Of a stretch of DNA of 64,000 nt, positions 2 to 58,155 are shown in pieces. Location: contig OZ253442.1 of the NCBI GenBank assembly GCA_965261085.1, positions 1,824,001 through 1,888,000 of the forward strand, written 5' to 3'. The notes below the pieces were generated by a model. It ran no database searches, was not told the DNA's origin, and was given only the letters and a program-made list of their open reading frames with translations. The DNA is from a bacterium. Lineage in GTDB: Bacteria > UBA8248. Both the position numbers and the translations under genes were made by a program. Numbering within the stretch: position 1 is the first letter of the stretch; each line of letters starts with the position of its first letter.

Positions 2-1855
2 CTCAAGGCCGTGTTGAAAGAAGTGAGCGAATCCGCCGGCGAAATCGTCCTGTTTATCGACGAGCTTCACACCGTCGTGGGCGCGGGTGCTGCGGAGGGG
101 GCGGTGGACGCCTCCAATCTCTTGAAGCCGGCGCTCGCCCGTGGGGAACTCCACTGCGTGGGCGCCACCACGCTCGATGAATACAGAAAACACATCGAGA
201 AGGACGCGGCGCTCGAGCGGCGTTTTCAGCCCGTTTTGGTCGATGAGCCGAATATAGAAGACGCCGTCTCCATCCTGCGCGGCTTGAAGGAGAGATACGA
301 GATTCACCACGGGGTCCGCATTCTGGACAACGCCCTGGTCGCCGCCGTCGCGCTCTCGCATCGCTACATCAGCGACCGCTACCTGCCGGATAAGGCCATC
401 GACTTGATCGATGAGGCCGCGAGCGGTCTGAGGCTTGAGTTGGACAGCCTGCCCAAGGACATCGATCGCCAGGAGCGCGAGCTTCTCAGGCTCCGCATTG
501 AAGAGCGCGCCCTGGAAGGGGAAGAAGACGAGGACGGCCGGGAGCGTTTGTTGCAGATACGCGAGCGAATCTCCGTTCTCGATGAACAGAGCCAGGCGCA
601 GCGAAACCAGTGGGCGGATGAGAAAAAGGCCATCTCCCGGGTGCGGGAGCTTAAGGAACGCATCGAGGAATTGAAGGCCGAGGCCCAGCGCGCCGAGCGC
701 GAGGGAGATCTGGGCCGGGCGGCGGAGCTTCGCTACGGCGAGATTATCGCGGTGGAAAAACAGATGGCCGAAGCGGAGGCGCACCTCGAAGAAGGCGCCA
801 GTGGCCGCATGCTGAAAGAGGAGATCACCGAGGACGACGTGGCCTCCATCGTGAGCCGCTGGACGGGTATCAACGTGAGCAGGCTGCTCGAGACGGAGAG
901 GGAGAAGCTCCTGCAGATGGAGGCGAACATCCATAAGCGCGTCGTGGGTCAGGACAGGGCGGTGGAGGCCCTGGCCGAAGCCGTGCGCCGCGCCCGCGCG
1001 GGCATCATGGACGAGAACCGCCCCGTCGGCTCGTTCATCTTCTTAGGACCCACCGGCGTCGGCAAGACGGAACTCGCCCGCGCGCTCGCGGAATTCTTGT
1101 TCGACGACGAGGCGGCGTTGATTCGCGTGGACATGAGCGAATACATGGAAAAACACGCCGTCGCCCGGCTCATCGGCGCTCCGCCCGGCTATGTCGGCTA
1201 CGAGGAGGGGGGACAGCTCACCGAGGCCGTGCGCAGAAAACCCTATTCCGTGCTTTTACTCGATGAGATCGAAAAGGCGCACCCCGAGACCTTCAACCTG
1301 CTCCTGCAACTGCTCGATGAAGGACGCCTCACGGATGGGCACGGCCGCACGATCGATTTCCGCAACACCGTCATCATCATGACGAGCAACGTGGGAACTG
1401 CCGAGCTTGCGCGAACCGAAATCGGTTTCAACGGAGGCGGCGTACAGCAGACCGATCAGTCCGAACAATTGCTCGGGGAGCTTCGCAGGTCGTTCCGGCC
1501 CGAATTCCTGAACCGCGTCGATGAGATCATCGTCTTCCGCGCGCTCACGAAAGAACAGATTGGCGAAATCGTGGAGATTCAGTTGCGGGAGTTGGAAAAG
1601 CGCCTCGTAGCGCAAAAAATCAGGTTGCGCTTGACTGACGCCGCCAAGAACTTCCTGGCCGAACGCGGCTACGACTCCGTCTATGGGGCGCGACCCCTCA
1701 AGCGAGCGATTCAGACGCACATCATGAATCCGCTCAGCAAGAAGCTGCTCGCCGGGGAATACGAGGCGGGAGAAACCGTGGAGGCGGACCATGCGGAGGG
1801 GGCGGATGCGCTTTCTTTCGCCGTACTCATGGAGGCCGAAGTGGTGAAAACTTGA
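2..1855 (+). CDS. clpB: ATP-dependent chaperone ClpB (5' end outside window)
   Basis: NBD1 Walker B (LFIDELH), DAALERRFQ, coiled-coil M domain, NBD2 GPTGVGKT / [16 protein letters not shown]; frame open from window start. Confidence 0.95.
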
Positions 1856-1963
1856 ATGCTAGCGGATGCGGATGCACCTTTCCATTCCGCGTCCATGAGA
1901 GCGAACAGACTTGGAACTTGGTTGAAAAATTTTGATTGTTATTCCCGATAAGGAGAAAGGTTG

Positions 1964-3877
1964 ATGTCGAAAGTAATCGGAATCGATTTGGGTACCACCA
2001 ACTCGGTCGTCTCGGTCATGGAGGGTGGGCAGCCTACGGTCATTTCCAACCAGGAGGGGAACCGCACGACGCCCAGCGTCGTCGCGTTCACCGACGATGG
2101 AGAGAAACTCGTCGGTCTCGTGGCCAAGCGCCAGGCGGTGACGAACCCGACCAGGACCATCTATTCCGTCAAGCGCTTCATGGGCAGGCGTTTCGCCGAG
2201 GTGCCCGAAGAAGTCACCATCGTTCCCTACGAGGTCGTGAAATCGGACAACGGCGCCGCGCGCATCAAAATCGACGGCAAGGAACACGCCCCTCCCGAGA
2301 TATCTGCGAGCGTGCTGCAAAAGCTCAAGCAGGCCGCGGAGGATTATCTGGGCGAGAAGGTGAACGAGGCGGTCGTCACGGTGCCCGCGTATTTCAACGA
2401 CAGCCAGCGCCAGGCGACGAAGGACGCCGGGAAAATCGCCGGCCTCGACGTGAAGCGCATCATCAACGAGCCGACGGCCGCCGCTCTCGCCTACGGACTC
2501 GACAAGAAGACGGATCAGACCATCGCGGTATATGACTTCGGCGGCGGCACGTTCGACATCTCCATCCTCGAGGTGGGAGACAACGTGGTCGAGGTGAAGG
2601 CCACGAACGGCGATACGCATCTGGGCGGCGACAACATCGACCACCGGATCATCGAGTGGATGGCGGAGGAGTTCAAAAAAGATCAGGGAATCGACATCTC
2701 GGGCGACCCGATGGCGCTTCAGCGCCTGCGCGAGGAATCCGAAAAGGCGAAGATCGAACTGTCGAGCTCGATGGAGACGTCCATCAACCTGCCGTTCATC
2801 ACGGCGGACGCCTCGGGTCCCAAGCACCTGAACTTGAAGCTCACGCGCGCGAAACTCGATCAGTTGATCGGCGATCTGGTCGAGAAGACGCTGGCTCCCT
2901 GCCGCCGCGCGCTCGATGACGCGAAGCTCCAGCCCGGAGACATCGACGAGGTGGTGCTGGTGGGCGGTTCGACGCGGATGCCGCTGGTGCAGCAGACGGT
3001 GGAGAAATTTTTCGGGAAAGAGCCCCACAAGGGCGTGAATCCCGACGAGGTGGTGGCGGTAGGCGCGGGTGTTCAGGGCGGCGTGCTCGCCGGAGACGTC
3101 AAGGACGTTTTGCTGCTGGACGTAACACCGCTCTCTCTGGGCATCGAGACCCTAGGCGGCGTGTTCACCAAGCTGATCGAGCGCAACACGACCATACCGG
3201 TCAAGAAGAGCGAAACCTTCTCCACGGCGGCGGACAACCAGCCCTCCGTCGAGGTGCACGTCCTCCAGGGCGAGCGCGAAATGGCCGGGGGCAACCGCTC
3301 GCTGGGCAAGTTCCACCTGGTCGGCATTCCCCCCGCTCCCCGGGGCGTTCCCCAGGTGGAGGTGACGTTCGACATCGACGCCAACGGCATCGTGAACGTC
3401 TCCGCCAAGGACCTGGGCACCAGCAAGGAGCAGGCGATCACCATCACGAGTTCGAGCGGCCTCTCCGAGGATGAGATCAACAACATGGTGTCCGAGGCGG
3501 ATGAGCACGCCGAGGAGGACAAGAAGCGGCGCGAGGCCGTCGAGGCGAGGAACCTGGCCGACAGCATGGCGTACAACACGGAGAAGATGCTCAAGGAGAA
3601 CGAGGACAAGGTGTCGGCCGAGGACAAGAAAGAGATAGAAGACGCCATCGCCGCGCTCCGGGCGGTTCTGGAGAAAGAGGACGCGACGGCGGATGAAATC
3701 AAAGAAGCGCAAGAAAAACTCGAGGCGGCCTCGCACAAGCTCGCGAAGGCGATGTACGAACAGGCGAGTCAGGCCGGCGCCGCCGGCGCCCCGGAGTCCG
3801 GCGGTGGGGAGAACGGCGCGCCCGCGGACGACGTCGTGGATGCGGAGTTCGAGGAAGTGGATAAGGACAAGCCCTAA
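1964..3877 (+). CDS. dnaK: Hsp70 chaperone DnaK
   Basis: [41 protein letters not shown]-terminal DAEFEEV; RBS AAGGAG upstream. Confidence 0.98.
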
Positions 3878-3901
3878 AAGTCTTGCCCGCATGAGGATGG
3901 T

Positions 3902-4840
3902 ATGCCCAAGCGTGATTATTACGAGGTGATGGGAATCGACCGGAGCGCTTCGGAAACGGAACTGAAACGTGTCTTCAAGAAGCTGGCGCGCAAGTATCAC
4001 CCCGACGTCAACCCGGGGGATGCCAAGGCGGAGGAGCGCTTCAAGGAAATCAGCGAGGCGTACGCCGTCCTCTCAGACTCGGATAAGCGCAGGAAATATG
4101 ACGCCATGGGACATGCCGCCTTCGGCGGGGGCAGCCCCTGGGGCGAGGGCGCGCCCCCCGGAATGGAAGACATCCTGCGCGATATTTTCGGCGGAGTTTT
4201 CGGCGGCGCGCGCGGCGGGGCGGGGCGCGGCGGCTTCCACGCGCAGCCCCAGGCCCCCCGGCGGGGTCAGGACGTGAATTACTCGATGGAGATTGGTTTC
4301 GACGATTCCCTGAAGGGGCTCAACACCACCATCACCGTGCCCAAGACCATGCACGAGAATGGGAAAATCCGGCACACCACGGAGCGCATTCAGGTGAAGA
4401 TACCGCCCGGCGTCTCGAACGGCTCGCGCATCCGTCTGGCGGGCAAGGGAGAAGCCTCCCTGAACGGGGGGCCGCAGGGGGACCTCTTCATCGTCACGAA
4501 GGTGCGGGAGCATCCTTTCTTCGAGCGAAAAGGGAATAATCTGTATCTCGATCTTCCCGTCAGCCTCGGCGAGGCGCTGCTGGGCGCGCGCGTGGAGATC
4601 AACACCTTCGAGGGGGTGACGAAGATGACGATTCCCCCCTCGACCCAGAACGCCCAGGTTTTCAGGCTTTCGGGAAAGGGCGCTCCGAAGCTCAAGGGCT
4701 CGGGCAAGGGCGATTTGTTCGTCAGGGTCCAGGTCTTGCTGCCGGAGAAGATGGATGAGGAAAGCAAGGAAATGGTCCGCGAACTCGAACGGCGCAACCC
4801 CACGTCGCCGCGGGCGAAAATGACCGGCGTGAGTCTATAG
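3902..4840 (+). CDS. class II J-domain protein (CbpA-like DnaJ without zinc finger)
   Basis: J domain with HPD, G/F linker, DnaJ C-terminal domains, no CxxCxGxG motifs. Confidence 0.9.
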   Translation: MPKRDYYEVMGIDRSASETELKRVFKKLARKYHPDVNPGDAKAEERFKEISEAYAVLSDSDKRRKYDAMGHAAFGGGSPWGEGAPPGMEDILRDIFGGVFGGARGGAGRGGFHAQPQAPRRGQDVNYSMEIGFDDSLKGLNTTITVPKTMHENGKIRHTTERIQVKIPPGVSNGSRIRLAGKGEASLNGGPQGDLFIVTKVREHPFFERKGNNLYLDLPVSLGEALLGARVEINTFEGVTKMTIPPSTQNAQVFRLSGKGAPKLKGSGKGDLFVRVQVLLPEKMDEESKEMVRELERRNPTSPRAKMTGVSL

Positions 4841-4905
4841 GTATGTACGGATGCAGGTACGGGCGGGAGTGGACGATATGATGATGGTGGGATCCGGAGA
4901 AGGCA

Positions 4906-5313
4906 ATGGCGCGTAGAAGCGTGAGAAACGGGCGCTACACCATCAGCGCGGTGGCCGAGATGTTCGGGGTTCATCAGCAGACGCTCAGGATGTACGAGCG
5001 CGAGGGCCTCATCGAGCCGGACCGCAGCGAGGGCAGGACGCGCTATTACTCCGAAGATGACCTGGAGCGGCTCGAAATTATCATGGCGCTTACGAGGGAC
5101 ATGGGCGTGAATCTGGCGGGCGTGCAGGTCATCATCGAGCTTCGCGAGAAGCTCATGCGCGCGCTCGATCGCCTGGGTGAATTCGAGGAATTACTCGAGA
5201 GTCAGGCGTTCGAGGATTTACGCGAGCGGATGAACAACGCGACGCCGGATATGCAGGCCATGATCCCTGCGTTCTCCGCCAAACTCGTGCGTGTCAGGAG
5301 GAGACGGGCATGA
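4906..5313 (+). CDS. hspR: MerR-family heat-shock repressor HspR
   Basis: [43 protein letters not shown] motif typical of HspR; lies inside dnaK operon. Confidence 0.85.
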
Positions 5314-6170
5314 GCACGAATTCCATCAAATCCTTTTTACTGCTCGGTTTGTTGACGGGGCTGATTCTGCTCATCGGGAATCTGGTCGGCGGCACGACCG
5401 GGTTGGTCATCGCCCTGGTGCTGGCCGTGGGGATCAATGGATACAGCTATTGGTATTCGGACAAAATGGTTCTCGCCAGCACGGGCGCGAGCGAGGTGCT
5501 TCCCGAACACGCGCCGGAACTCTACGGCATGGTGGCGGACCTGGCGCGGCGCGCGAACCTGCCCATGCCGCGCGTATACGTCATTCCCGAGAGTGCGCCG
5601 AACGCCTTCGCCACGGGCAGAAACCCCGAGAACGCCGCCGTCGCCTTCACCGAGGGGCTTTTGCGGGACCTGAACCGCGAGGAACTCGAAGGCGTGGCCG
5701 CGCACGAACTCGCCCACATCAAAAATCGGGACATTCTTCTGAGCACCATCGCCGCCTCCCTGGCGGGCGCCATCATGTATCTCGCGCATATGGCGCAGTT
5801 CGCCGCGTTTTTCGGCGCCTACGGCAGGGGCGACGATGAGGAGGGCGGTGGCGGAGGCTTGCTGGGAATCATCGTCGCCGCGATAGTGGCTCCCATTGCG
5901 GCGACGCTCCTTCAGATGGCGGTGAGCCGCTCGCGCGAGTATCTTGCCGACGCCACGGGCGCGCAAATCGTGGGCACGCCGGTCGGGCTGGCGAACGCCC
6001 TGCATCGCCTGGATGAGGCCTCACGTCGTGAGGAACTCCACTGCGCGAGCGAGGCGACGGCCCATATGTATATCGTCAACCCGCTATCGGGCGGGGGTAT
6101 GGCGAGTCTTTTCAGCACGCACCCGCCGATGGAGGAGAGGATTCGGCGGTTGATGGAAATGAGATACTAG
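5310..6170 (+). CDS. htpX: zinc metalloprotease HtpX (M48)
   Basis: [15 protein letters not shown] (HExxH), [15 protein letters not shown]; N-terminal TM helices; ATGA overlap with hspR. Confidence 0.93.
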
Positions 6171-6192
6171 GTATTTGGGAGGAAGTCGTTTC

Positions 6193-6885
6193 ATGAAAGC
6201 GAAGGATGTGAAAGTCGAGACGGGCAAGGGGGAAGGGGTGAAGGCCGAAGCCGCAGAGCCGGTGGATGAAGGCCGCGCGGAAGAGGAAGCCAAGGAGAAG
6301 CCGCGCGTCGTGGACAGGCGGCGCGTCCGCGAAGACGGCGAGGTGAGCGAGGAGGGGGCCGGGGAGACCGAAGAGACCCCGCGCGTGCCCGCCTACGTGG
6401 AGCAGCTCCAGGCGAAGGTCGCCGCCGCCGAGGAGAAGCTCAGAGAGCACATCGATAAAATCGACAAGGAGACGGCCGATTTCAGGGCCCGGCAGGAGCG
6501 CGAGATGGAGCGCAGGACCCGGGAGGTGAAAAAACAGGCCGTATCGGGCTTTTTGAGCATCGCCGATGATCTGGCGCGCGCCACGGCGGCCGTGGACGGC
6601 GGCGCTTCCAAGGGGGAGGAGGGCGGAGTTCTCGAAACCCTGGTGCAGGGGGTGCGGATGATTCAGGGCCGGTTCTTTCAGGAACTCTCGAACCTGGGGG
6701 TGGAGCCTCTCTCTGCGATGGGCGTCGCCTTCAACCCCGAAGAGCACGAGGCGGTGCGCATGGTCGAGGTGAGCGAAGAGGCGCTAGACGGCATGGTGGT
6801 GGAGGAACTGGCTTGCGGCTATAGGCTGGGCGACGCGGTTCTAAGACCCGCGCGCGTCTCGGTGGGCAAGTATGCGGGCGAATAG
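6193..6885 (+). CDS. grpE: nucleotide exchange factor GrpE
   Basis: acidic N-tail, coiled coil, FNPEEHEAV, GYRLGDAVLRPARVSV. Confidence 0.9.
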   Translation: MKAKDVKVETGKGEGVKAEAAEPVDEGRAEEEAKEKPRVVDRRRVREDGEVSEEGAGETEETPRVPAYVEQLQAKVAAAEEKLREHIDKIDKETADFRARQEREMERRTREVKKQAVSGFLSIADDLARATAAVDGGASKGEEGGVLETLVQGVRMIQGRFFQELSNLGVEPLSAMGVAFNPEEHEAVRMVEVSEEALDGMVVEELACGYRLGDAVLRPARVSVGKYAGE

Positions 6886-6962
6886 TCGGTCTCGCGCCCT
6901 TGTACCAGATTCGTGCTCATAGTATCGTCGCGTGTTTTCGATTTTCGGGGTGAAGGGAAAGC

Positions 6963-8099
6963 ATGAGCAAGCGTGATTACTACGAAGTGCTGGGCGTAGG
7001 CCGCGATGCGGGCGACGCCGAGATCAAAAAGGCGTATCGCACGCTGGCGATGAAGCATCATCCGGATCGCAACCCGGGCGATGTGAAGGCCGAGGAGTTG
7101 TTCAAGGAAGCATCCGAGGCCTACCAGGTGTTGAGCGAGCCCGATAAGAGGAGCGCGTATGATCGCTTCGGCCACGAGGGGCTCCGGGGAATGGGGCATC
7201 AGGGGTTTTCGAGTTTCGACGATATCGTCTCCTCGTTCGGGGATTTGTTCGGCGGCGTTTTCTCCGGCGCGCGCACGCGCCGCGACGGTCCGCGCAAGGG
7301 CCGGGACCTTGCCTATCAACTGGAGATGACTTTCGAGGAAGCGGCGACGGGCATCGAGCGCGAGCTCGAGTTCGAGCGGCCTACGGAGTGTGTTTATTGC
7401 GGCGGCAGCGGGGCCAAGTCGCCCGATGCGGTTCGCAAATGCCCATCCTGCGGCGGCAGCGGCCAGAGGACCTATCGACAGGGGTTCATGACTTATTCCA
7501 CCACCTGCTCGGATTGTGGCGGCGCAGGCAGGCAAATCCTCGAGCACTGCGCGGAATGCGATGGGGCCGGACGCCGCCTGGAGCAGAGGAAGGTGAAGGT
7601 CAAGATTCCCCCCGGCGTGGACGAGGACGCCAGGCTGCGTCTACGCGAAGAGGGAGAAGGAGGCGCCAAAGGCGGGCCGGCGGGCGATTTGTTCGTCGTC
7701 GTCTCCTTGCTCGCGCATGAGGAATTCGAGCGCAACGGGGCGGACGTGGCGAGCCAGGTGTACGTCACCTTCTCGCAGGCGGCGCTGGGCGACACTGTGA
7801 GGGTGCGGACGCTCTATGGAGAATCCGAACTCGAGATTCCCAAGGGAGTGCAGTCCTCGGATGTTCTCAGGCTGAGGGGCGAGGGATTCCAGCGCCTCGG
7901 CAGGAAAGGGCGCGGCGCTCACATGTTCCTGCTTCACGTCCAGACGCCGACGAAATTGACGCCGGACGAGGAAAGAATCTTTGGCGAATTGTTGGAGATC
8001 GAACGTGAAAAGGCGGAAAAAAATGGGACTGGAAGAGTCGAGGAAAATGGCGCCGGGAAAAAGGGTATTCTCGGCAAGTTGAGTTCTCTTTGGGGATAG
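6963..8099 (+). CDS. dnaJ: chaperone DnaJ (class I)
   Basis: J domain HPD, four CxxCxGxG motifs (CVYCGGSG, CPSCGGSG, CSDCGGAG, CAECDGAG). Confidence 0.95.
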   Translation: MSKRDYYEVLGVGRDAGDAEIKKAYRTLAMKHHPDRNPGDVKAEELFKEASEAYQVLSEPDKRSAYDRFGHEGLRGMGHQGFSSFDDIVSSFGDLFGGVFSGARTRRDGPRKGRDLAYQLEMTFEEAATGIERELEFERPTECVYCGGSGAKSPDAVRKCPSCGGSGQRTYRQGFMTYSTTCSDCGGAGRQILEHCAECDGAGRRLEQRKVKVKIPPGVDEDARLRLREEGEGGAKGGPAGDLFVVVSLLAHEEFERNGADVASQVYVTFSQAALGDTVRVRTLYGESELEIPKGVQSSDVLRLRGEGFQRLGRKGRGAHMFLLHVQTPTKLTPDEERIFGELLEIEREKAEKNGTGRVEENGAGKKGILGKLSSLWG

Positions 8100-48005: not shown

Positions 48006-48277
48006 ATGCGTGGTAATTCGATAAATTAGGTACATCAAGCTATTTTCATCGGCCATTGAATCCAGCTATCCTGTTGATATCATTTCAAAAATATATTTTT
48101 GCCAACATCATCCAGAATCCACTTTCCGCAACATGTAATCAAATCGAAAGCGGATTCATTATAATTTCTGCGCATCCTATCGGGTTCGTGTCCGGTAATC
48201 GATGGGGTGGACGCGCCCTCCCGGCAACTTCACACTGTGGCAAGGTGACGTCGTTTACCGCCCTGGAGGAGGTACCC

Positions 48278-48754
48278 ATGGAACAAGGTCACATCATCGG
48301 CATCGACTTGGCGAAACAGAGCTTTCAACTCCACGCGAGCGCGCGCGAGGACGAGGAGGCGAGGCGCCTGATGAGCATCCCGGGGATCGGGCCGATCTGT
48401 GCGATGGCTATCCAGGCCTTCGCGCCGCCGGTGGAGAGCTTCCGTCGCGGGCGTGACTTCTCCGCCTGGCTCGGGCTCGTCCCCTGGCAGCACTCCACCG
48501 GGGGCAAGGCGCGGCTGGGCAGGATATCGAAGATGGGCCAGCGCGACGTCAGGCGGCTGTTGATCATAGGCGCGATGACGGTGGTGGGCTGGGCGGTCCG
48601 GTGAGGCGCGCCGCCGGGCTCATGGCTGGCCCGGATGCTGGCGCGCAAGCCGCGTATGCTGGTTGCAGTGGCGCTGGCCAATAGGATGGCGCGCATCGCC
48701 TGGGCGCTGATGACGAACAAGGAAGTCTACCGGGAACCGGCGCCGGTCGCCTGA
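48278..48754 (+). pseudogene. IS110 transposase pseudogene
   Basis: MEQGHIIGIDLAKQSFQLH fused directly to LMSIPGIGP..FRRGRDFSAWLGLVP.QHSTGGK..LGRISKMG; in-frame TGA 48602-48604, then ..VAVALANRMARIAWAL. Confidence 0.9.
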
Positions 48755-48975: not shown

Positions 48976-49320
48976 TGCGCCGAACTATCCAAAACAACGC
49001 TTGCATTTTTGGGCGCGTCCATACAGATCGTTTCGGAACGCCTTGTCCACGGCGCAGTTGCGGCCCCACAGCAGAATTCATCCAAAATAACACGATAACA
49101 ACACGTAATTGTCGCAAACGCTCACACTAAGTTCACACATTTTGTGCTTAAATGGGTCTGGTAATTTACAGTGCTCCGTAGAGCAACTATGGGGCGAAAC
49201 TCGGGGAGTTTTCGTTGCGTGTGAGTGTTTGGGGGGGATCTTCCGGATCCCTCGACGAGGAGAAACGAGTTGAGCCGGGGCGCCCATTGCCCCGGATTCA
49301 CTTGAGAAAGGTGACAGACC

Positions 49321-51829
49321 ATGCCTGACGACTATACATCCGATACGCAGACCACCGGCGCGGTGGAGGTGGACGGCTCGGCGACGGGCGAGATCGAGAC
49401 CTCGAATGACTTCGACTGGTTCGCGGTCGACCTGGTCGCCGGCCATACCTACGTCATCGACCTGGAGGGAGCCGACAGCGGCGGTGGCGCCCTGCAGGAC
49501 CCGGTACTGCGAGGCCTCTACGACGCCGACGGCAACCGGATTGCGGGCGCCCGGGACAACGATGGCGGCGCTGGCAGGGACGCCCGGTTGACCTTCACCG
49601 CCACCACCACCGGCGCCTACTATATCGAAGCTCGCGGCCATTCGAATCAGACGGGCGAGTACACCGTGCGCGTGACGGAATGGGTGGATACGGACGCCGA
49701 GCGCGGCGGCGCCGCCGCGCTCGGCGATATCACGGCTCTCGCCGGGCCGCAGTTTCCGGCGGCATCACTCGACGGCTCCTCCGACTCGGTGGACTACTGG
49801 CGTTTCACGCTTTCGGAGGCCAGGAGGGTTGGACTGGGTTTGCGCCAACAGGATGCGAATGCCGACCTGTTTCTGGAGGACGCCGAAGGCAACGTCCTCT
49901 ACAGCGGCACGGAGGAGGGGACGGCGAGCGAGTGGATTTCGCAGACGCTCCTGGCCGGGACGTATTTCGTGCGTGTGGAAGCGCAGGAAGAAGGCGCCAA
50001 CGAATTCAAACTGCGTTATGGGGTGAGTGGGGCCAATCCCGACGTGGTGGCCGCCTTGGAACAGCAACAGGAGGGGACGGATGAGGCGCCGGCGTTCGCG
50101 GAGGGGAGCTATGCGTTCTCACTCGCGGAGAACACGGACGGCGGCACTGTCCCCGTTTCACTCGGCTTGGTACAGGCGACGGACCCTGAGGACGAGACGA
50201 TTACCTACAGCATCGAGGCGGGCGACTCCGGTGGCCTGTTCGCCATCGACCCGGGGACGGGCGCCCTGTCGTACCAGGGCGCGGGCGAGGACTACGAATC
50301 AGGGACGACCAGCTACGAGTTGACGGTGCGGGCGAGTGACGGCGGCCTGCACAGCGACGTGACCGTGACCGTCAACGTCACCGACGTAGAGGAATACGTC
50401 ATTCTTGCGCAGCAGGGGACGGATGAGGTGCCGGCGTTCGGGCAGACGAGCTATGCGTTCTCACTGGCGGAGAACGCGGACGGGGGCACGAACGGGGTGT
50501 CTCTGGGCGCGGTTTCGGCCACGGACCCGGAAGACTCGACGATTACCTACAGCATCGAGGCGGGCGACCCCGGTGGCCTGTTCGCCATCGACTCCGAGAC
50601 GGGCGCCCTGTCGTACCGGGGCGCGGGCGAGGACTACGAGTCGGAGACGAGGGGCTACGAGCTGACGGTGCGGGCGAGTGACGGCGGCCTGCACAGCGAC
50701 GTGACCGTCACCGTCAACGTCACCGACGCGCAGGAAGCTCCGGCGTTCGGTCAGGAGAATTACGCGTTCTCGCTCACGGAGAACGCGGGGGGGGGACACG
50801 ATCAGTCTTTCGCTCGGCGTGGTACAGGCGACGGACCCGGACGATGACCCGGTTGCCTACAGCATCGAGGCGGGCAACCCCGACGGCCTGTTCGCGATCG
50901 ACGCCACGACGGGCGAGCTGTCCTACCAGGGCGCGGGCGAGGACTACGAATCCGATGCGATCCGCTACGAACTGACGGTGCGGGCGAGCGACGGCAGCCT
51001 GCACAGCGACGTGACCGTCACCGTCAACGTCACCGACGTAGCCGATGTGGAGGAATACGTCAGTCTTCAGCAGGAGGCTAGTGTGTCCGAACCGGACGGC
51101 CAGGACCTTCCGGCAGGCGCCTCCACGACCGGCCGGGTTGCGGTGGGTGGCTCGGCGACGGGCGAGATCGAGTTCAACCGCGACCGCGACTGGTTCGCGG
51201 TGGAACTGGAGGCGAACACGAACTACCGGATCGACCTGGAGGGCTCGCCGACCGGGAACGGCACCCTGAGGGACCCGTATCTGCGCGGGGTCCACGACGC
51301 GAATGGCGTCCGCCTCCCCGGCACGACGAACGACAACGGCGGCGTCGCCCGGAACAGCCGGGTGGAGTTCACGGTGGACGATGCCGGCGCCTACTATGTG
51401 GCGGCCGGCGCTTATAAAAGCGGGCAAGGCGCCTACAGGCTGTCGGTGAGGGAGGTCCCGGACGATTTTTCGGCCGGGACCGGGACGACCGGCACGGTGG
51501 ATGTGGGTGGCTCGGCGACGGGCGAGATCGAGTTCCACCGAGACCGCGACTGGTTCGCGGTGGAGCTGGAGGCGAACACGACCTACCGGATCGACCTGGA
51601 GGGTTATTGGACCGGGGCCGGTACCCTGAGAGACCCATACCTGCGCGGGCTCCACGACGCGGACGGCAACCTCCTCCCCGGCACGACGGCCGACGACGGG
51701 GGCACGGACTGGAACAGCCGGATGGAGTTCACTGCCGACGATGCCGGGACCTACTATGTGGCGGCCGGCGCCGGGGGAACCTGGGAAGGCGCCTACACGC
51801 TGTCGGTGTCGGTGGAAGAGGTCATGTGA
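49321..51829 (+). pseudogene. PPC-like/cadherin multidomain surface protein, frameshifted at a G9 tract (listed as two ORFs 49321-50847 and 50819-51829)
   Basis: PPC-like repeat (GEIE..D.DWF, IDLEG, YY) + divergent PPC + 3 cadherin-like repeats (APAF....Y.F.L.EN, ATDPE, DYE, LTVRASDG) + 2 PPC-like repeats; removing one G at 50787-50795 joins the frames. Confidence 0.85.
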
Positions 51830-52279
51830 GGTGCGCGGCGGCGACCGCGAAAGCTGTCGTACGGCCTCAGAGTGCGGCCTCCGCGGGAGGCCCTGCCGGT
51901 GAACCCGGCGGGCCGGGCCGTGAGGGCCAGTCCCGCCGTGCCATGCGGTGGCCGACCCCGTGTTCGTTGGCGATGGAGGCAGGTTTGGCCGCGTCTTCGC
52001 CGGGCATGCGCCGGATTCGAATCGACACTCGAAGGACTCGGCGGCGGCGCTCTCCCAGGGGGATGGGATGAAAGCCGCCGTTTCCGGGGCGTTCACCGCA
52101 TTTCCCGGGAAATCACCCGATTCGAGTTGAAAACAGGAAGTTTACATACGCACTATACACCCTCGGCATGACGATTTGTCGTTTATTTTTTGGACGTCAT
52201 GTGATATATTTTATTTGATTGTTCATATAAATTTGCATATAATTTTCTTTTTTTATCCACTTGAGAAAGGAGGCGGACC

Positions 52280-52654
52280 ATGCCTGACGACTATTCATCC
52301 ACGACGCAGACCACCGGCGCGGTGGAGGTGGGCGGCTCGGCGACGGGCGAGATCGAGACCAGGAGCGACCGCGACTGGTTCGCGGTAACCCTGGAGGCGG
52401 GCAGGATCTACCGGATCGACCTGGAGGGTTCGGATTCCAGGGGCGGCACCCTGTACAACCCCTATCTGCGCGGGATCTACAACGCGGACGGCGTCCGCTT
52501 CGCCGGCACGACGGACGACGACGGCGGCGCGGACCGCAACAGCCGGGTGGAGTTCAGGGCGGAGGAGAACGCCACCTACTATGTGGCGGCCGGAGCCTAG
52601 AGAGACCGGGAAGGCGCCTACACGCTGTCGGTGACGGCGGAAGAGGTCATGTGA
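52280..52654 (+). pseudogene. single PPC-like domain gene with in-frame TAG
   Basis: MPDDY start; TAG at 52598-52600 followed in frame by RDREGAYTLSVTAEEVM-TGA, matching paralog C-termini. Confidence 0.85.
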
Positions 52655-52805
52655 GGTGCGTGTGAGCGTTCTGGGGGGATTTTCCGGATCCATCGACGAG
52701 GAGAAGCGAGTTGCGCCGGGGCGCCCATTGCCCCGGCTGGGCGGACCCATCGCCCCTCTCGGGGCGGGCCCTATTTCTTTATTCACTTGAGAAAGGGGAC
52801 AGACC

Positions 52806-54395
52806 ATGCCTGACGACTATTCGGCTAATACGGAGACCACCGGCAGGGTGACGGTTGGCGGCTCGGCGACGGGCGAGATCCAAGCCGGGTTCGACCGCGA
52901 CTGGTTCGCGGTGACCCTGGTGGCGGGCAAGACCTACTGGATCGACCTCGAGGGCTCGCAGACCGGGGGCGGAACCCTGTTCAACCCGTATCTGCGGGGG
53001 GTCTACGACGCGGACGGCGGTCGCCTCCCACGCACGTCGAACGACAACGGCGGTGAGGGCCGCAACAGCCGGCTGACGTTCACGGCCGGGGAGGACGCCA
53101 CCTACACGGCCGGGGAGGACGTCACCTACTATGTGGCGGCCAGCGGGCTTGGATACAGACTAGGCACCTACACGCTGTCGGTGACGGAGGTCCCGGACGA
53201 TTTCGAGGCCGATACCGGGACGAGCGGCGTGGTGGAGGTCGACGGCTCGGCGACGGGCGAGATCGAGACCGGGGGCGACCGCGACTGGTTCGCGGTGGAA
53301 CTGGATGCGGGCAGGACCTACCTGATCGACCTGGAGGGTTCGCATACCGGGGCCGGCACCTTGAGGGACCCGTATCTGCGCGGGGTCTACGACGCGGACG
53401 GCAACCTCCTCGCCGGCACGACGAACGACGACGGGGGCGCGGGCCTCAACAGCCGGGTGACGTTCAAGGCCGGGGAGGACGCCACCTACTATGTGGCGGC
53501 CGGCGCTTATGGAGACAGGGAAGGCGACTACAAGCTGTCGGTGACGGAGCTTGCGTACGACGATTTTGCGGCCGGGATCGAGACCACCGGCAGGGTGGAG
53601 GTCGGCGGCTGGACGACGGGTAATGTCGAACCCGGGGGCGAGATCGAAACCGGGTACGACCGCGACTGGTTCGAGGTGCAACTGCTTGCGGGCACGACCT
53701 ACCGGATCGACCTCGAGGGCCGGAAAACCGCGGACGTCACCATGACGGATCCATATCTGTACGGGATCCACGACGCGAACGGCGACATCATCCACGGCAC
53801 GGTCGACGACAACGGGGGTAGATTGAACGTTAACGACCGGGACAACTACAACAGCCGGGTGACGTTCACGCCGACGGCGGACGGCGCCTACTACGTGGCG
53901 GCCGGCGGCGCGGGAAGCGATCCAGGCACCTACAGGCTGTCGGTGATGGTCGCGGACGATATTGCGGACGATTTTGCGGACGGGACCGAGACCACCGGCG
54001 AGGTGGTTGTCGACGGCTCGGTGACGGGCGAGATCGAGACCAGGGGCGACCAAGACTGGTTCAAGGTCGAGCTCGATGCGGACACGACCTACCGGATCGA
54101 CCTCGAGGGCTTGGTGATCGTGGACGACCGCTTCCTGGAGAGCCATTTGCCCCCGAATGTGTGGATGGCGTTTTACGGGAACCCGTACACATACGGGGTG
54201 AACACGTATCTGCGCGGGGTCTACGACGCGAATGGCGTCCGCCTCGCCGGCACGACGAACGACAACGGGGGCTATGGCCCCGACAGCCGGGTGACGTTCA
54301 CGGCGGAGGAGGCCGCCACGTACTATGTGGCGGCCGGCGCCTGGTATAACGGGGAAGGCGCCTACACGCTATCGGTGGAAGAGGAGGTCATGTGA
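52806..54395 (+). CDS. protein of four tandem PPC-like beta-sandwich domains
   Basis: four ~120-150 aa repeats DD....T.T.G.V.V.GS.TGEIE...D.DWF.V.L....Y.IDLEG...YL.G..DA.G......DNGG..NSR.TF......YYVAA......G.Y.LSV; ends EEVM; no signal peptide. Confidence 0.88.
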   Translation: MPDDYSANTETTGRVTVGGSATGEIQAGFDRDWFAVTLVAGKTYWIDLEGSQTGGGTLFNPYLRGVYDADGGRLPRTSNDNGGEGRNSRLTFTAGEDATYTAGEDVTYYVAASGLGYRLGTYTLSVTEVPDDFEADTGTSGVVEVDGSATGEIETGGDRDWFAVELDAGRTYLIDLEGSHTGAGTLRDPYLRGVYDADGNLLAGTTNDDGGAGLNSRVTFKAGEDATYYVAAGAYGDREGDYKLSVTELAYDDFAAGIETTGRVEVGGWTTGNVEPGGEIETGYDRDWFEVQLLAGTTYRIDLEGRKTADVTMTDPYLYGIHDANGDIIHGTVDDNGGRLNVNDRDNYNSRVTFTPTADGAYYVAAGGAGSDPGTYRLSVMVADDIADDFADGTETTGEVVVDGSVTGEIETRGDQDWFKVELDADTTYRIDLEGLVIVDDRFLESHLPPNVWMAFYGNPYTYGVNTYLRGVYDANGVRLAGTTNDNGGYGPDSRVTFTAEEAATYYVAAGAWYNGEGAYTLSVEEEVM

Positions 54396-54519
54396 CGTGC
54401 GCGGCGGCGTTCGCAGGGCCTCCGCGGGAGGCCCTGCCGGTGCCCGGCGGCTGTTCTTCACCATCGGTCCGTTCAGCGCCTTCGTCAATCTTCCGGCGCC
54501 TCCCCGGCGAGCAGGGCCA

Positions 54520-55050: not shown

Positions 55051-58011
55051 CTAGAATTTCATTCCGAAATCGACGCGCCCGGAGTATTCATCATCGTCCG
55101 AGCCCGGGCCGCCCGCCGAGAGTTCGGCGCCCAGGGAGAAAGGGCCCTGGCGATAAGCGCCGCCCAGGCCCAGGAGAACGCGGGTTTTGGCCGATTCGGA
55201 TGTGAGTTTCTCGCCCGAAACAACGGTGGTCGTACCGCCGTCGCCGAGCGCCTGTTCCACATCCAGCGAGACGTGCAGGGAGAGAGCGCCGCCCTCCCAG
55301 GTGCGCGCGGTCTCCGCGATCAGTCCGAGGCCGCCCTTGAATCGCCGTGAGTCGTCCAGCGAGATGCGAGAGTTCACCGCGTCGGTGAATTCGGCGTTCA
55401 AAAACCCTGCGCCCATCATCCACGCGCGGGGCGTCAGTTTTATCTTCTCGCCCAGTGCGACCCGCATGCCCGCCTCGATTCCCACGGAATAACCGAGCGC
55501 CCCGCCGTTTTTGGTCAATTCGCCTCGCTTGGTGGAGGAAGCGTCCACGTCGTAGTCGATCAATGCGGTGCGGCCGGCCGCGTAATAGCCGCTCGTATTG
55601 CTCCACGAAGCGCCGAGCGCGGCGCCGATTCCCTGCGCTTTGATATCCCCATTCCCGGCGGGCGATTCGACCTCCGCCGAGCCGTTTACATAGCGTGCGG
55701 AGATCGAACCGCCCAGATTCTCGCCGAAAGAGAAACTCACGCCGGCTTCCGCCCCGAAGTGGTTCAGGTCGTATTTTGCGCCCACGCTCGCGCGCTCGGC
55801 CTCATACGAACCCTTGCCGTTCGAGAGGCTCACCCAGACGGGTGCGCCGGTCGATGCGATGCGTTTTCCCGCTACTCCCCGGCCGTTCAGGCGAAGTAGG
55901 AAGCCGGGCAGGGTCTCATAGACGGCTGCGCGCGGAGCGTAGACTGCGGTGAAGTCGTTATGCGAGAAAATCCGGCCCGTGACGGTCGGCGTTTCGAGCA
56001 GGGTGACGTCCCACGCCCCGTTCGGGGCTTCGAGACCGGTGGCGCCCGCTTCGCCGTCGTGAAGCACGACGCCGTTGATCAGCAGGGCGGTTTCGCCTTC
56101 GTGGTTGTGGATGAAGCTCTCGCCGATGACCTGCGCCACACGGCGGCCGTCGAGGTTCATGTCGACGTGGAGTCTGGGCGCATCGCCCGCCGCGCGAATC
56201 GCTATCCGCGATTCCGCCCCGAGGCTTCCCCTCGGCCCGATGACGACCCGGCCGCCGCCCGCGAGAAAGACGCCCGCCGCGTCCCTGCCCGAGCCGCCCG
56301 TCACCGGGGCGTTCACCGTGACGCTCTGCTTGCGGTAGCCCTCCTCGTCCACTTCGGCGGCGAGCGTCGCTCGTCCCCGGGAGTCGACCTCGCCCACCCG
56401 AACGCCGCTGGCGTCCGGCCCGGCGGCGTGGACTCTTCCCCCGTCCACGGCGATGCGGACCGAACCCGAACCCCCATGATAGGCCGCGATGCCGTGGGAC
56501 CTTTCGTTCATCGTCGCGACCTCGGCCCCGCGCGCGTCGATCTCGATGGAGCCCGTGCCGGTATGGGAGCCTTGTATGCTGGCGGCATTCATGCCCGTGG
56601 TCGTGACTCGGATGCCCCGGGCGTAAATGCGGACCCCACCGGCGTTCCGGTGAAGTCCGTGGACGCCCTCGGAACCCTCGCCTTCTGTCTGGATGAGTGC
56701 GTCGCGCACGACGATTTCAATTTCGCCCATACCGCTGTGGGAGGCGAGAATGCCTTCGGCGCCCGCACCCCTTGTCGTAACGCCGCCTCCCTGGACATCT
56801 ATGTGCGTGTTGCCCTCGGAGCCGACATGGTATCCATAGACGCCGTCGGCGTTCTCGCCTTCGGTCGTGATGGCGACGTCTTTCAGATCGATCTCGATGG
56901 CGCCCGTCCCGCCATGGGAGCCTCGGATTCCGTAAGCTCCCGCTCCCGTAGTCTTGACTTGGGTGTTTTGCGCGTCGATATTGACGTCGCCTTCGCTGTT
57001 CCGTTGATGAAGCCCGTGGACGCCCCCGGCTTCTTGGCCCTCCGTAGCGATGGAGACGCCGTGCATGTTCATTTCGATACCGCCCGCGCCTGAGTGAATG
57101 GCGATGATGGCCTCGGCTTGATTGCCCCTTGTCGTGATGTCGGTACCCTGCACGTCGATGCCGATGCTGTCCGCGCCTTCATGAGTTCCACGAATGGCCT
57201 CGGCTTCTTGGCCCATTGTCGTGATGGCGCCGCCCTGAACGTCGATGCGGATGTCGCCCTCGGAACCGACATGAAATCCATAGACGCCGTCGGCGTTTCT
57301 ACCCTGCGTCATGATGGTGACGTCTTTCAGATCGATCTCGATAGCGCCCCTCCCCCCGTGGGAGCCACGGACCCCGGAAGCACCCGCGCCCATCGTTATG
57401 ACCTCGGTGTTTTGTACGCCGATATGGACGTCGCCCGCGCCTCGATGAAGCCCGTGGACTCCTTCCGCGCCCTCGCCCTCCGTCTCGAAGAGGGCCTTAC
57501 GCACGAGGATTTCGATCTCGCCCGCCCTTTCATGGATGATGAGGATGGCCTCGGCTTCATCGCCGCTCGTCGTGATGTCGGTGTTTTGCACGTCGATGTG
57601 GACTCCGCCTTGGGCGCCTTCGTGAAATCCATAGACGCCGTCGGCGTTCCTGCCCTGTGTCGTGATGATGACGTCCTTTAGATCGACCTCGATTTTTCCT
57701 TCGCCGGCATGAGAGGCGGAGATAGCGTCGGCGATCGGCCCATCCGTGTTGATGGTGAGGTTTCGGGCGTCGATGTCGATGGCGTCGGTGGAATCAGCGG
57801 GCTCTCTGCAATCGATCCAACCGCCGGGTTCCGGCGTGTCTTTGCACACGCCTTGCTGGGCCGGCGCCTCCCCGGTGAGCAGGGCCAAGACGGCGGTCAG
57901 CGCCACGGCGATAGCGGCCGTCTTGAACGGCATTCTCATAGACCCTTTGTTTTTGAAACCGGAGACCGAAGCGAAACGGGTCTTTATGAGCGGGCGTGTT
58001 GAAAAATCCAT
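55051..58011 (-). CDS. autotransporter (type Va) with beta-helical repeat passenger
   Basis: hydrophobic signal segment TAAIAVALTAVLALLTGEAPA, fifteen ~29-aa Gly-rich repeats, YAPRAAVYE linker, amphipathic beta-barrel ending in F; start could also be 57939. Confidence 0.88.
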   Translation of the reverse strand: MDFSTRPLIKTRFASVSGFKNKGSMRMPFKTAAIAVALTAVLALLTGEAPAQQGVCKDTPEPGGWIDCREPADSTDAIDIDARNLTINTDGPIADAISASHAGEGKIEVDLKDVIITTQGRNADGVYGFHEGAQGGVHIDVQNTDITTSGDEAEAILIIHERAGEIEILVRKALFETEGEGAEGVHGLHRGAGDVHIGVQNTEVITMGAGASGVRGSHGGRGAIEIDLKDVTIMTQGRNADGVYGFHVGSEGDIRIDVQGGAITTMGQEAEAIRGTHEGADSIGIDVQGTDITTRGNQAEAIIAIHSGAGGIEMNMHGVSIATEGQEAGGVHGLHQRNSEGDVNIDAQNTQVKTTGAGAYGIRGSHGGTGAIEIDLKDVAITTEGENADGVYGYHVGSEGNTHIDVQGGGVTTRGAGAEGILASHSGMGEIEIVVRDALIQTEGEGSEGVHGLHRNAGGVRIYARGIRVTTTGMNAASIQGSHTGTGSIEIDARGAEVATMNERSHGIAAYHGGSGSVRIAVDGGRVHAAGPDASGVRVGEVDSRGRATLAAEVDEEGYRKQSVTVNAPVTGGSGRDAAGVFLAGGGRVVIGPRGSLGAESRIAIRAAGDAPRLHVDMNLDGRRVAQVIGESFIHNHEGETALLINGVVLHDGEAGATGLEAPNGAWDVTLLETPTVTGRIFSHNDFTAVYAPRAAVYETLPGFLLRLNGRGVAGKRIASTGAPVWVSLSNGKGSYEAERASVGAKYDLNHFGAEAGVSFSFGENLGGSISARYVNGSAEVESPAGNGDIKAQGIGAALGASWSNTSGYYAAGRTALIDYDVDASSTKRGELTKNGGALGYSVGIEAGMRVALGEKIKLTPRAWMMGAGFLNAEFTDAVNSRISLDDSRRFKGGLGLIAETARTWEGGALSLHVSLDVEQALGDGGTTTVVSGEKLTSESAKTRVLLGLGGAYRQGPFSLGAELSAGGPGSDDDEYSGRVDFGMKF

Positions 58012-58155
58012 GATTTGTTCCCCATCACCCTCGGCCTGATGGAATTCGGGTTCCCATGAGTCTTGGAAACGAAGCATCCACATTACATTATGATAAGACT
58101 TGCGGAACTTCACCGCTATCTTTTTTTCTTTGGGTTTTCCCGGTTGCGCCGGAAT

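Follow-up and report, generated by a model that had tools for sequence, protein, structure and literature searches.

Three genes built from PPC and cadherin domains

We analyzed a 64,000-nucleotide stretch of a bacterial chromosome (GTDB lineage UBA8248; assembly GCA_965261085.1, contig OZ253442.1, positions 1,824,001 to 1,888,000), hereafter the window, and in particular an array of PPC domains within it, which an initial annotation made from the sequence had read as a diversifying, antibody-like binder repertoire. The array occupies four open reading frames (ORFs) on the plus strand (49321-50847, 50819-51829, 52280-52600, and 52806-54395 in window coordinates), in which Pfam recognized PPC (PF04151) and Cadherin (PF00028) domains and nothing else of weight. 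We recovered the eight copies of one domain in three genes that had been described there, at ~108 aa each, and the loop strings, framework blocks, and codon positions quoted for them all match the sequence. A repeat search of the window likewise returned a family (D2) of eight copies of 169 nt, with 66-81% identity to the reference copy. All three genes start with M-P-D-D-Y, which is also the first residue of the domain, end in EEVM, and have upstream and downstream DNA in common.

Gene 1 (49321..51829, plus strand) runs from MPDDY to EEVM and is split into ORFs 49321-50847 and 50819-51829 by a +1 frameshift. Its domain order is PPC, a second and divergent PPC-like domain, three cadherin repeats, and two PPC. 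The first PPC copy, d1 (49351..49674), belongs to an N-terminal type that is almost unchanged in five genes; the cadherin repeats lie at 50086-50385, 50428-50727, and 50737-51037, the third being split by the frameshift; and the two C-terminal PPC copies are d2 (51125..51448) and d3 (51485..51808). Gene 2 (52280..52654, plus strand) carries a single PPC, d4 (52310-52633), interrupted by an in-frame TAG at 52599-52601 in loop 4. Gene 3 (52806..54395, plus strand) carries four, d5 (52836-53183), d6 (53220-53543), d7 (53583-53945), and d8 (53991-54377), and a 24-nt tandem duplication at 53082..53129 (two units, one mismatch) adds eight residues before the YYVAA strand of d5.

The repeat unit as a PPC-like β-sandwich

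The assignment of the domain as PPC-like was upheld by Pfam, the predicted structure, and structure matches alike. PF04151 scored 49.0, 46.5, and 73.3 bits in three window ORFs, against a gathering cut-off of 25.9, and 25.0 bits, just below it, in the single-domain gene 2; in seven paralogs elsewhere in the genome, it scored 54-244 bits. No peptidase domain was found in the 4 window ORFs and the 7 paralogs scanned. From an alignment of 53 stop-free paralogs, AlphaFold2 predicted a seven-strand β-sandwich with a mean pLDDT of 91.2, in which just an 11-residue N-terminal linker was of low confidence. The best Foldseek matches in the PDB were the PPC domain of a Bacillus anthracis collagenase and the collagen-binding domains (CBDs) of ColH and ColG (top entries 5sv5, 3jqw, 1nqj, and 1nqd; TM 0.62-0.70; E 1e-5 to 1e-4), and a profile search of PDB sequences aligned the ColH CBD (E=0.0046) along the motifs D-x-D-[WY]-F and DDG...YY.

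The PPC and CBD domains of collagenases are extracellular binding modules; a PPC-containing segment of a Grimontia collagenase binds collagen, and the CBDs of ColG require Ca2+ for binding (PMC6168687). The family studied here resembles the collagenase domains in its Pfam match, its sandwich fold, and both motifs; it differs from them in that no peptidase is attached, the domains form tandem arrays, and the first domain begins at residue 1. Counted by strand order, the variable loops join strands 1-2 and 3-4, form the end of the long 4-5 connection, and join strands 6-7. By this order, all four loops should come together at one end of the sandwich, beside the conserved Asp/Asn motifs.

Loop variation and selection across the genome-wide family

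A hidden Markov model built from the eight window copies was searched against a six-frame translation of the genome, a collection of paralogs that the initial annotation had suggested. It yielded 58 domains in ~13 genes and seven genome regions (1.067, 1.873-1.878 [the window], 2.477-2.483, 3.275, 3.289-3.306, 3.323-3.325, and 3.804-3.810 Mb). The 55 full-length copies were analyzed further; the partial ones at 1621799-1621891, 2476981-2477220, and 2477473-2477775 were left out. Tandem arrays hold up to 11 copies in this genome and up to 33 elsewhere, and intact family genes encode 529-1866 aa. Within the genome, every complete family gene opens with M-[PT]-D-D-Y at the first domain residue and ends in an acidic-hydrophobic tail, e.g., EEVM, EEVL, EDSM, VDGM, VDAM, or VDAI. 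Among homologs elsewhere, 144 of 266 start with M..DD[YFHI]; EEVM (32), MDVL (16), and EEVL (10) are their most frequent tails.

Variation had been placed at four fixed positions of the domain. Over the 55 copies, entropy does peak at the four loops, but it also peaks at about ten other surface positions. Seventy loci in other genomes, with 438 copies between them, show the same conserved and variable profile (Spearman 0.90), so the pattern is a property of the family and not of the window locus. A contrast in codon composition was likewise borne out in part: G+C content at third codon positions (GC3) is lower in the loops, averaging ~0.76 over the 17 loop columns compared with 0.9-1.0 in most framework columns, but the dip is uneven and lies mainly in loop 4 (0.30-0.76) and loop 1. 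The claim that the loops are rich in W, Y, F, and R proved weak. Together these four account for 184 of the 927 residues in loops and 807 of the 4998 in the framework (odds ratio 1.29, p=0.006); W is enriched 2.9-fold, but Y and F are at 0.98-fold, and the loops consist mainly of G, S, T, and E. The loops also accommodate insertions of 6-30 residues.

To estimate selection, we used 26 independent nearest-neighbor paralog pairs and pairwise codon models with time common within a pair. In these models, ω (dN/dS) came to 0.27-0.32 in framework codons and 2.1-2.9 in loop codons, and the loop rate ρ, when left free, was 0.8-1.1. Likelihood-ratio statistics against a loop ω of 1 were 10.3-24.7 (p between 1e-3 and 7e-7). 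The loop estimate was robust to common or partition-specific codon frequencies and to the free loop rate, and it remained above 1 without the window's eight copies, which had served to define the loops (22 pairs). Two controls were run: the 17 most variable non-loop columns gave an ω of 1.02, and the cadherin repeats of the same genes gave 0.17. Both speak against an artifact of column selection. By NG86 counts over the 26 pairs, pN/pS was 0.73 for framework and 1.35 for loop codons; the corresponding values were 0.82 and 1.58 over 22 close pairs, in which 263 of 316 loop differences were nonsynonymous, compared with 75.9% expected (p=0.001). An all-pairs NG86 count (1485 non-independent pairs) that put framework pN/pS above 1 in close pairs was upheld neither by the independent pairs (0.73-0.82) nor by the codon models (~0.3), and was dropped.

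The alternative is that these are ordinary duplicated β-sandwich repeats whose loops are unconstrained and drift neutrally, with ω above 1 arising as an artifact of codon bias, alignment, or recombination. Structural tolerance predicts what is seen in the 438 foreign copies, namely, that the same columns vary; the tolerated insertions, the mild NG86 ratios in the loops (just 1.35-1.58), the framework GC3 of ~0.95, which implies that synonymous sites are constrained, and the lack of loop enrichment among ortholog differences (see below) fit it as well, as does one codon-model fit, non-converged and discarded, that gave a loop ω of 0.99. However, every converged fit placed the loops at 2.1-2.9 under both codon-frequency settings and with a free loop rate, while equally variable non-loop columns stayed at 1.02; the signal held out of sample; and misalignment would be expected to drive ω toward 1, not beyond it. 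We consider neutral drift of the loops unlikely. The contrast between 2.1-2.9 in the loops and 1.02 in equally variable columns supports the earlier proposal of diversifying change, and, as far as sequence comparison can tell, the four loops are probably under positive diversifying selection, with codon models showing a framework held by purifying selection.

Recombination and gene lesions

The framework had been proposed to be homogenized by recombination or gene conversion. A 1000-bp tract at 51638-52637 is 100% identical to genome positions 3299861-3300860 (minus strand), 1.4 Mb away, whereas the left flank of the tract is ~75% identical to the 3.30-Mb locus and the right flank is unrelated to it. 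The identical tract covers d3 from its middle through its C-terminal half, the intergenic region, and gene 2 to just past its TAG, so the nonsense codon was copied along with it. Gene 2 itself is chimeric, with the 5' part of a paralog of 11 domains joined to the family C-terminal tail. Gene 3 has four domains compared with five in its orthologs P0001, P0003, and P0004, and d8 is an in-frame fusion of the front of ortholog domain 4 and the back of domain 5, joined within the SRVTF block. Breakpoints within conserved framework blocks thus agree with the proposal, but the exchanged pieces carry loops as well as framework.

The TAG had been noted as the only nonsense codon in the array. It does lie in a loop, but the frameshift of gene 1 is a second lesion: a G9 homopolymer at 50787..50795 puts cadherin repeat 3 out of frame by +1, and one base fewer restores the frame. 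Paralogous cadherin repeats have one base fewer at this site and no long G run. Reading of the TAG as a recoded codon was rejected, since a family gene of the congener G004 has a TAG at another position, followed by out-of-frame sequence.

The G run was also covered by contigs from metagenome runs. This mapping used assembled contigs of four runs, which span 100-870 nt in the repeat region, had rare variants dropped, and include much cross-mapping from related organisms; such contigs cannot show loop-restricted polymorphism or rare mosaics, and depth and uncovered parts were not interpreted. Apparent joints in the mapped contigs, which fell in repeats and had matching sides of just 20-38 nt at 90% identity, were not used. 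The sole covering contigs of X10 (depth 34.9/34.9) and X2 (6.23/6.23) lack one base of the run, which restores the frame, while those of X6 (0/7.22) and X1 (0/10.4) have G9. Paralogs in this genome are unlikely as the origin of the G8 contigs, their identity here being at most 80% compared with a mapping threshold of 90%. The length difference could reflect slipped-strand on/off switching or just strain differences. Run X6 may be the source sample.

Could the family simply be decaying, as the remnants of an acquired island that is being lost under relaxed selection? Lesions interrupt two of the three window genes, several paralogs are broken by frameshifts or stops (3.275, 3.300, and 3.324 Mb), remnants persist at 1.622 and 2.477 Mb, insertion sequence (IS) and integrase genes adjoin several loci, and the family was not found in 39 of the 40 relatives searched. 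A decaying, largely nonfunctional family is nevertheless difficult to square with a framework ω of ~0.3, with the persistence of intact genes of 529-1866 aa, with the absence of the frameshift from the contigs of two other runs, and with the intact secretion operons neighboring some members. We give this explanation hardly any credence.

Search for a loop-writing mechanism

The initial annotation had noted that no reverse transcriptase (RT) of a diversity-generating retroelement (DGR) lies in the window; this held when the search was extended to the whole genome. Two RVT_1 matches were found, at 1.15 and 1.69 Mb, both far from every family locus. The first is a group II intron maturase (TIGR04416, 356 bits compared with a cut-off of 300). 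The second is a 582-aa ORF (L008 1291-3039; 1.694 Mb) that combines a group-II-intron-like RT (RVT_1, weak GIIM) with a C-terminal RNase H; this fusion falls under every NCBIfam cut-off (best TIGR04416, 137 bits compared with 300). No adenine bias was seen among paired copies, A being involved in 203 of 428 loop differences and 441 of 948 framework differences (47% in both).

Nor do the loops run ahead of the remaining sequence. Near-identical paralog pairs show 0-2 nonsynonymous loop changes, which indicates that loops diverge in step with the rest. Loops 3 and 4 of domains 1-3 do not vary among three gene 3 orthologs from other samples (97, 91, and 89% identity), and at this 89-97% identity the loop positions were not enriched for ortholog differences (odds ratios between 0 and 2.0, p>0.17 throughout). 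No silent cassettes exist, since each family gene is equipped with a ribosome-binding site (RBS), a start codon, and an upstream region of its own, the last often being the same 200 nt.

These results bear on programmed diversification, whether by DGR-like retrohoming, by cassette conversion of the pilE/pilS or vlsE type, or by expression switching at the G run. Such a process would be in keeping with the conserved framework around variable segments, the very recent 1000-bp conversion tract, the G8 of X10 and X2 compared with the G9 of X6 and X1, and the many paralogous donors in the genome. Against it stand the two RTs, the only ones present, neither of DGR type nor near a family locus; the equal adenine share in loops and framework; the individual RBS, start, and upstream region of each gene; the invariant ortholog loops; and a conversion tract that is not restricted to loops. 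Programmed diversification is, in our judgment, very improbable, and the labels "undescribed system" and "antibody-like", taken to mean a dedicated mechanism, were not supported, given the recurrence of the profile in foreign copies, the stable ortholog loops, the few loop changes between near-identical paralogs, the lack of a DGR-type RT and of adenine bias, and the extent of the tract.

The comparison with known systems points the same way. DGR targets of the Mtd/TvpA type share with this family a stable scaffold that presents a few variable, ligand-facing positions; unlike them, the present family has no DGR RT or template repeat, no adenine bias, another fold, and variation on an evolutionary time scale. 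In cassette-based antigenic variation (pilE/pilS, vlsE), conserved blocks around variable segments permit conversion, as in one recent event here, but the present family has no single expression site and no promoterless cassettes, and the 1-kb tract spans an intergenic region. Neither a DGR nor a cassette system fits the family; its diversity would instead be germ-line and slow, arising on evolutionary time scales.

Type I secretion context

At 3.32 and 2.47 Mb, genes for an ABC transporter (622 and 620 aa), an HlyD adaptor, and an outer-membrane efflux protein (OEP) lie directly 3' of family genes on the same strand. The ABC proteins are of the PrtD type (TIGR01842, 587 and 591 bits compared with a cut-off of 510), and the adaptors are type I HlyD proteins (TIGR01843, 312 and 320 bits compared with 209). 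A third PrtD-type operon, located by tblastn at 1.622 Mb, comes right after a family-gene remnant, so that all three PrtD-type operons of the genome are linked to a family gene or remnant. Among the 70 loci from other genomes, 14 encode an ABC or HlyD homolog within 3 kb on either side; ten of the ABC proteins at foreign loci are 68-89% identical to those of this genome, and the record titles of operon-bearing loci name Alphaproteobacteria, Gemmatimonadetes, Binatia, Paracoccaceae, and Entotheonella. One ABC gene of this genome (L003 10732-12600) shows 75-89% protein identity to exporters (L022, L038, L025, L043, and others) in metagenome-assembled genomes (MAGs) titled Gemmatimonadetes, Alphaproteobacteria, Binatia, and Entotheonella. 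Such exporter identity is unusually high for different phyla, which suggests that the secretion operon was co-transferred with its substrates.

By inspection, the family proteins have no N-terminal signal peptide: M-P-D-D-Y is the start of the domain, with the RBS 8-10 nt upstream. Substrates of PrtD-class exporters typically have an uncleaved C-terminal secretion signal in which hydrophobic side chains at the extreme C-terminus are preceded by an acidic one, a motif rule that reportedly goes back to Ghigo and Wandersman in 1994, and the conserved C-terminal tails of the family include EEVM, EEVL, VDAM, VDGI, and DVLL. Most known type I substrates also carry RTX nonapeptide repeats. As a separate observation, small proteins of 290, 521, and 322 aa that consist almost entirely of such repeats, with 11-14 Pfam stretches each, are encoded near two family loci (L001 14516-17022, L004 11600-12568) and may use the same exporters as the family. 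PrtD-type exporters lack C39/CLD domains and thread unfolded cargo (PMC8277102). Taken together, gene order and protein ends indicate that the family proteins are probably substrates of PrtD-type type I secretion.

Spread across several phyla

A profile search of 1.84 billion representative proteins returned 18,384 at E<=1e-3 and 2,648 at E<=1e-30, and a search of one genome per species found 431 stretches that encode a relative of the family. The best 70 of these 431 loci have 53-75% identity, and their record titles name Candidatus Binatia, Alphaproteobacteria, Nitrospirales, Chloroflexi/Dehalococcoidia, Gemmatimonadetes, Candidatus Entotheonella, Candidatus Poriferihabitaceae, Gammaproteobacteria, and a few cultured Rhodobacteraceae. 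Many of the genomes with matches are sponge-associated MAGs, and by contig mapping "sponge metagenome" runs hold near-identical pieces, e.g., 671 nt with 20 differences. By contrast with this wide spread, just 1 of 40 kin of the present genome tested positive for the family, this one being among the 22 congeners and none among the 18 more distant relatives. Because the family is patchy among kin, highly identical across phyla, and accompanied by secretion genes, it seems to have moved horizontally between phyla together with its secretion operon. It is apparently at home in sponge-associated bacteria.

A probable horizontally spread family of leaderless binding modules

We consider it likely that the locus belongs to a horizontally spread family of leaderless PPC/cadherin repeat proteins that are exported by a type I system and whose loops diversify without dedicated machinery. 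The proteins would lack a signal peptide and leave the cell unfolded through a PrtD-type system that reads their C-terminal end. Folding would follow on the outside, probably as Ca2+ binds the conserved Asp/Asn motifs D-x-D-W-F and N-D-D-G-G, and the folded proteins would serve as adhesin-like binding modules, plausibly for a sponge host (its matrix or its cells) or for neighbors. Going by the codon models, diversifying selection would drive the four strand-connecting loops, while purifying selection holds the framework. Ordinary homologous recombination between the framework blocks and the shared 5' and 3' gene ends reshuffles domain number and loop combinations through unequal crossover, deletion, and gene conversion, as the events described above show. 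Diversity would be germ-line and slow, with no part for a dedicated diversifying enzyme or cassette system. Judged by distribution and identity, family and secretion operon would have been transferred between phyla. The evolutionary part of the initial annotation, a recombining framework with positively selected loops, was largely right; it missed the secretion context and the genome-wide and cross-phylum spread.

Several points weigh against this interpretation. A secretion operon was not found in the 64-kb window, the nearest lying ~250 kb away, and RTX nonapeptide repeats (PF00353) are absent from the 4 window ORFs and 7 paralogs. The putative signal role of the C-terminal tails comes from their resemblance to the acidic-hydrophobic motif. 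The ω values come from home-made pairwise models applied to recombining paralogs, the NG86 ratios are milder, and the discarded fit placed loop ω near 1. The placement of the loops on one face follows from strand order, and with head-to-tail packing they could sit at domain junctions instead. Ca2+ binding, ligand, and export of the family proteins are all things we infer. Finally, two of three window genes and at least three paralogs are broken, so part of the family may be decaying.

The closest known counterparts in overall plan are type I-secreted RTX adhesins of the LapA/MpIBP/SiiE kind. These adhesins and the present family are alike in being leaderless, in having long β-sandwich arrays of Ca2+ type, and in lying beside ABC-HlyD-OEP operons. 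The present family differs in that it has no RTX repeats, a PrtD-type ABC protein without a C39-like domain, PPC in place of an Ig-like unit, no N-terminal retention module that we recognized, and many midsized paralogs rather than one giant gene.

How sponge symbionts attach to or avoid their host remains an open question in the field. The main text of Robbins et al. (2021; PMC8163846) reports cadherin-domain "attachment" genes that are enriched and laterally transferred in sponge-symbiont MAGs, alongside fibronectin and other eukaryote-like repeats, and states that no usual secretion route explains their delivery. The genes described there resemble the present family in having cadherin repeats, found here in the same proteins as PPC, and in a patchy, cross-phylum, sponge-associated distribution; the main text is without PPC, this architecture, or its secretion route, the supplementary tables lying outside our coverage. 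Our literature search, which likewise did not cover supplementary tables that may list PF04151, turned up no publication that connects PPC domains with sponges or with type I secretion, and none describing the family. The family offers a concrete candidate route in the PrtD-type type I system beside its genes, a binding module related to collagen-binding domains, and 17 defined loop positions under probable diversifying selection that could be swapped for assay. More tentatively, it is possible, if doubtful, that a mobile module of PrtD-type operon and PPC arrays, passing between phyla, gives sponge symbionts a germ-line repertoire of Ca2+-dependent binders, with apical loops pushed apart by positive selection, loop sets recombining among paralogs through gene conversion and unequal crossover, and on/off switching of single members through homopolymer slippage. 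If so, the mobile PPC-binder module would be a bacterial counterpart of multigene variable-receptor families.

Leader, intergenic elements, and neighboring genes

The region ahead of gene 1 (49026..49320, plus strand), a putative promoter and 5' leader with the RBS GAAAGG ahead of the ATG, was delimited by blastn against the rest of the genome and by alignment of upstream regions. It is 91-95% identical to the upstream DNA of four to five paralogous genes. A leader of ~200-290 nt is kept at that identity upstream of five to six family genes, the paralogous ones lying at 1.0667, 3.2923-3.2926, 3.3060-3.3063, and 3.3251-3.3254 Mb. It contains a G-rich run and then a GC hairpin (CCGGGGCGCC...GCCCCGG). 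Rfam gave no match over the entire window, so the shared leader does not belong to any known RNA family; a regulatory role is possible, as is mere recent duplication. An 80-nt copy (91%) of its element at 49216-49295 (repeat family D10) recurs upstream of gene 3 at 52657..52736 (plus strand).

Upstream of gene 2, an AT-rich segment holds a promoter-like site, TTGATT-17-TATAAT (52215..52243, plus strand), which is a match to consensus alone (1 found compared with 1.1 expected from shuffles). GC-rich hairpins follow the gene 3 stop (54417..54450, plus strand), with a terminator-like site at 54434-54450, and 54417-54442 is an exact copy of 51876-51901, 3' of gene 1 (repeat family D13).

Just upstream of the array, at 48056-48604, lies a fragmentary transposase of the IS110/IS116 family (182-aa ORF with PF02371 at residues 102-177), and directly after the array, on the minus strand at 55051-58113, an autotransporter of 1020 aa with a PF03797 β-domain and an internally repetitive passenger. 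A second autotransporter (1260 aa; L001 8061-11843) and a LuxR-type regulator (L001 6622-7764) are found beside the family gene at 3.275 Mb, and DDE transposases and two phage-type integrases lie beside other family loci (L001 17422-18864, L004 9751-11199, L006 13473-15748). Near the start of the window (11-8099) is a heat-shock cluster, its genes all in one direction, encoding a ClpB-like protein, DnaK, a DnaJ-like protein, a MerR/HspR-type regulator, an M48 peptidase, GrpE, and DnaJ.

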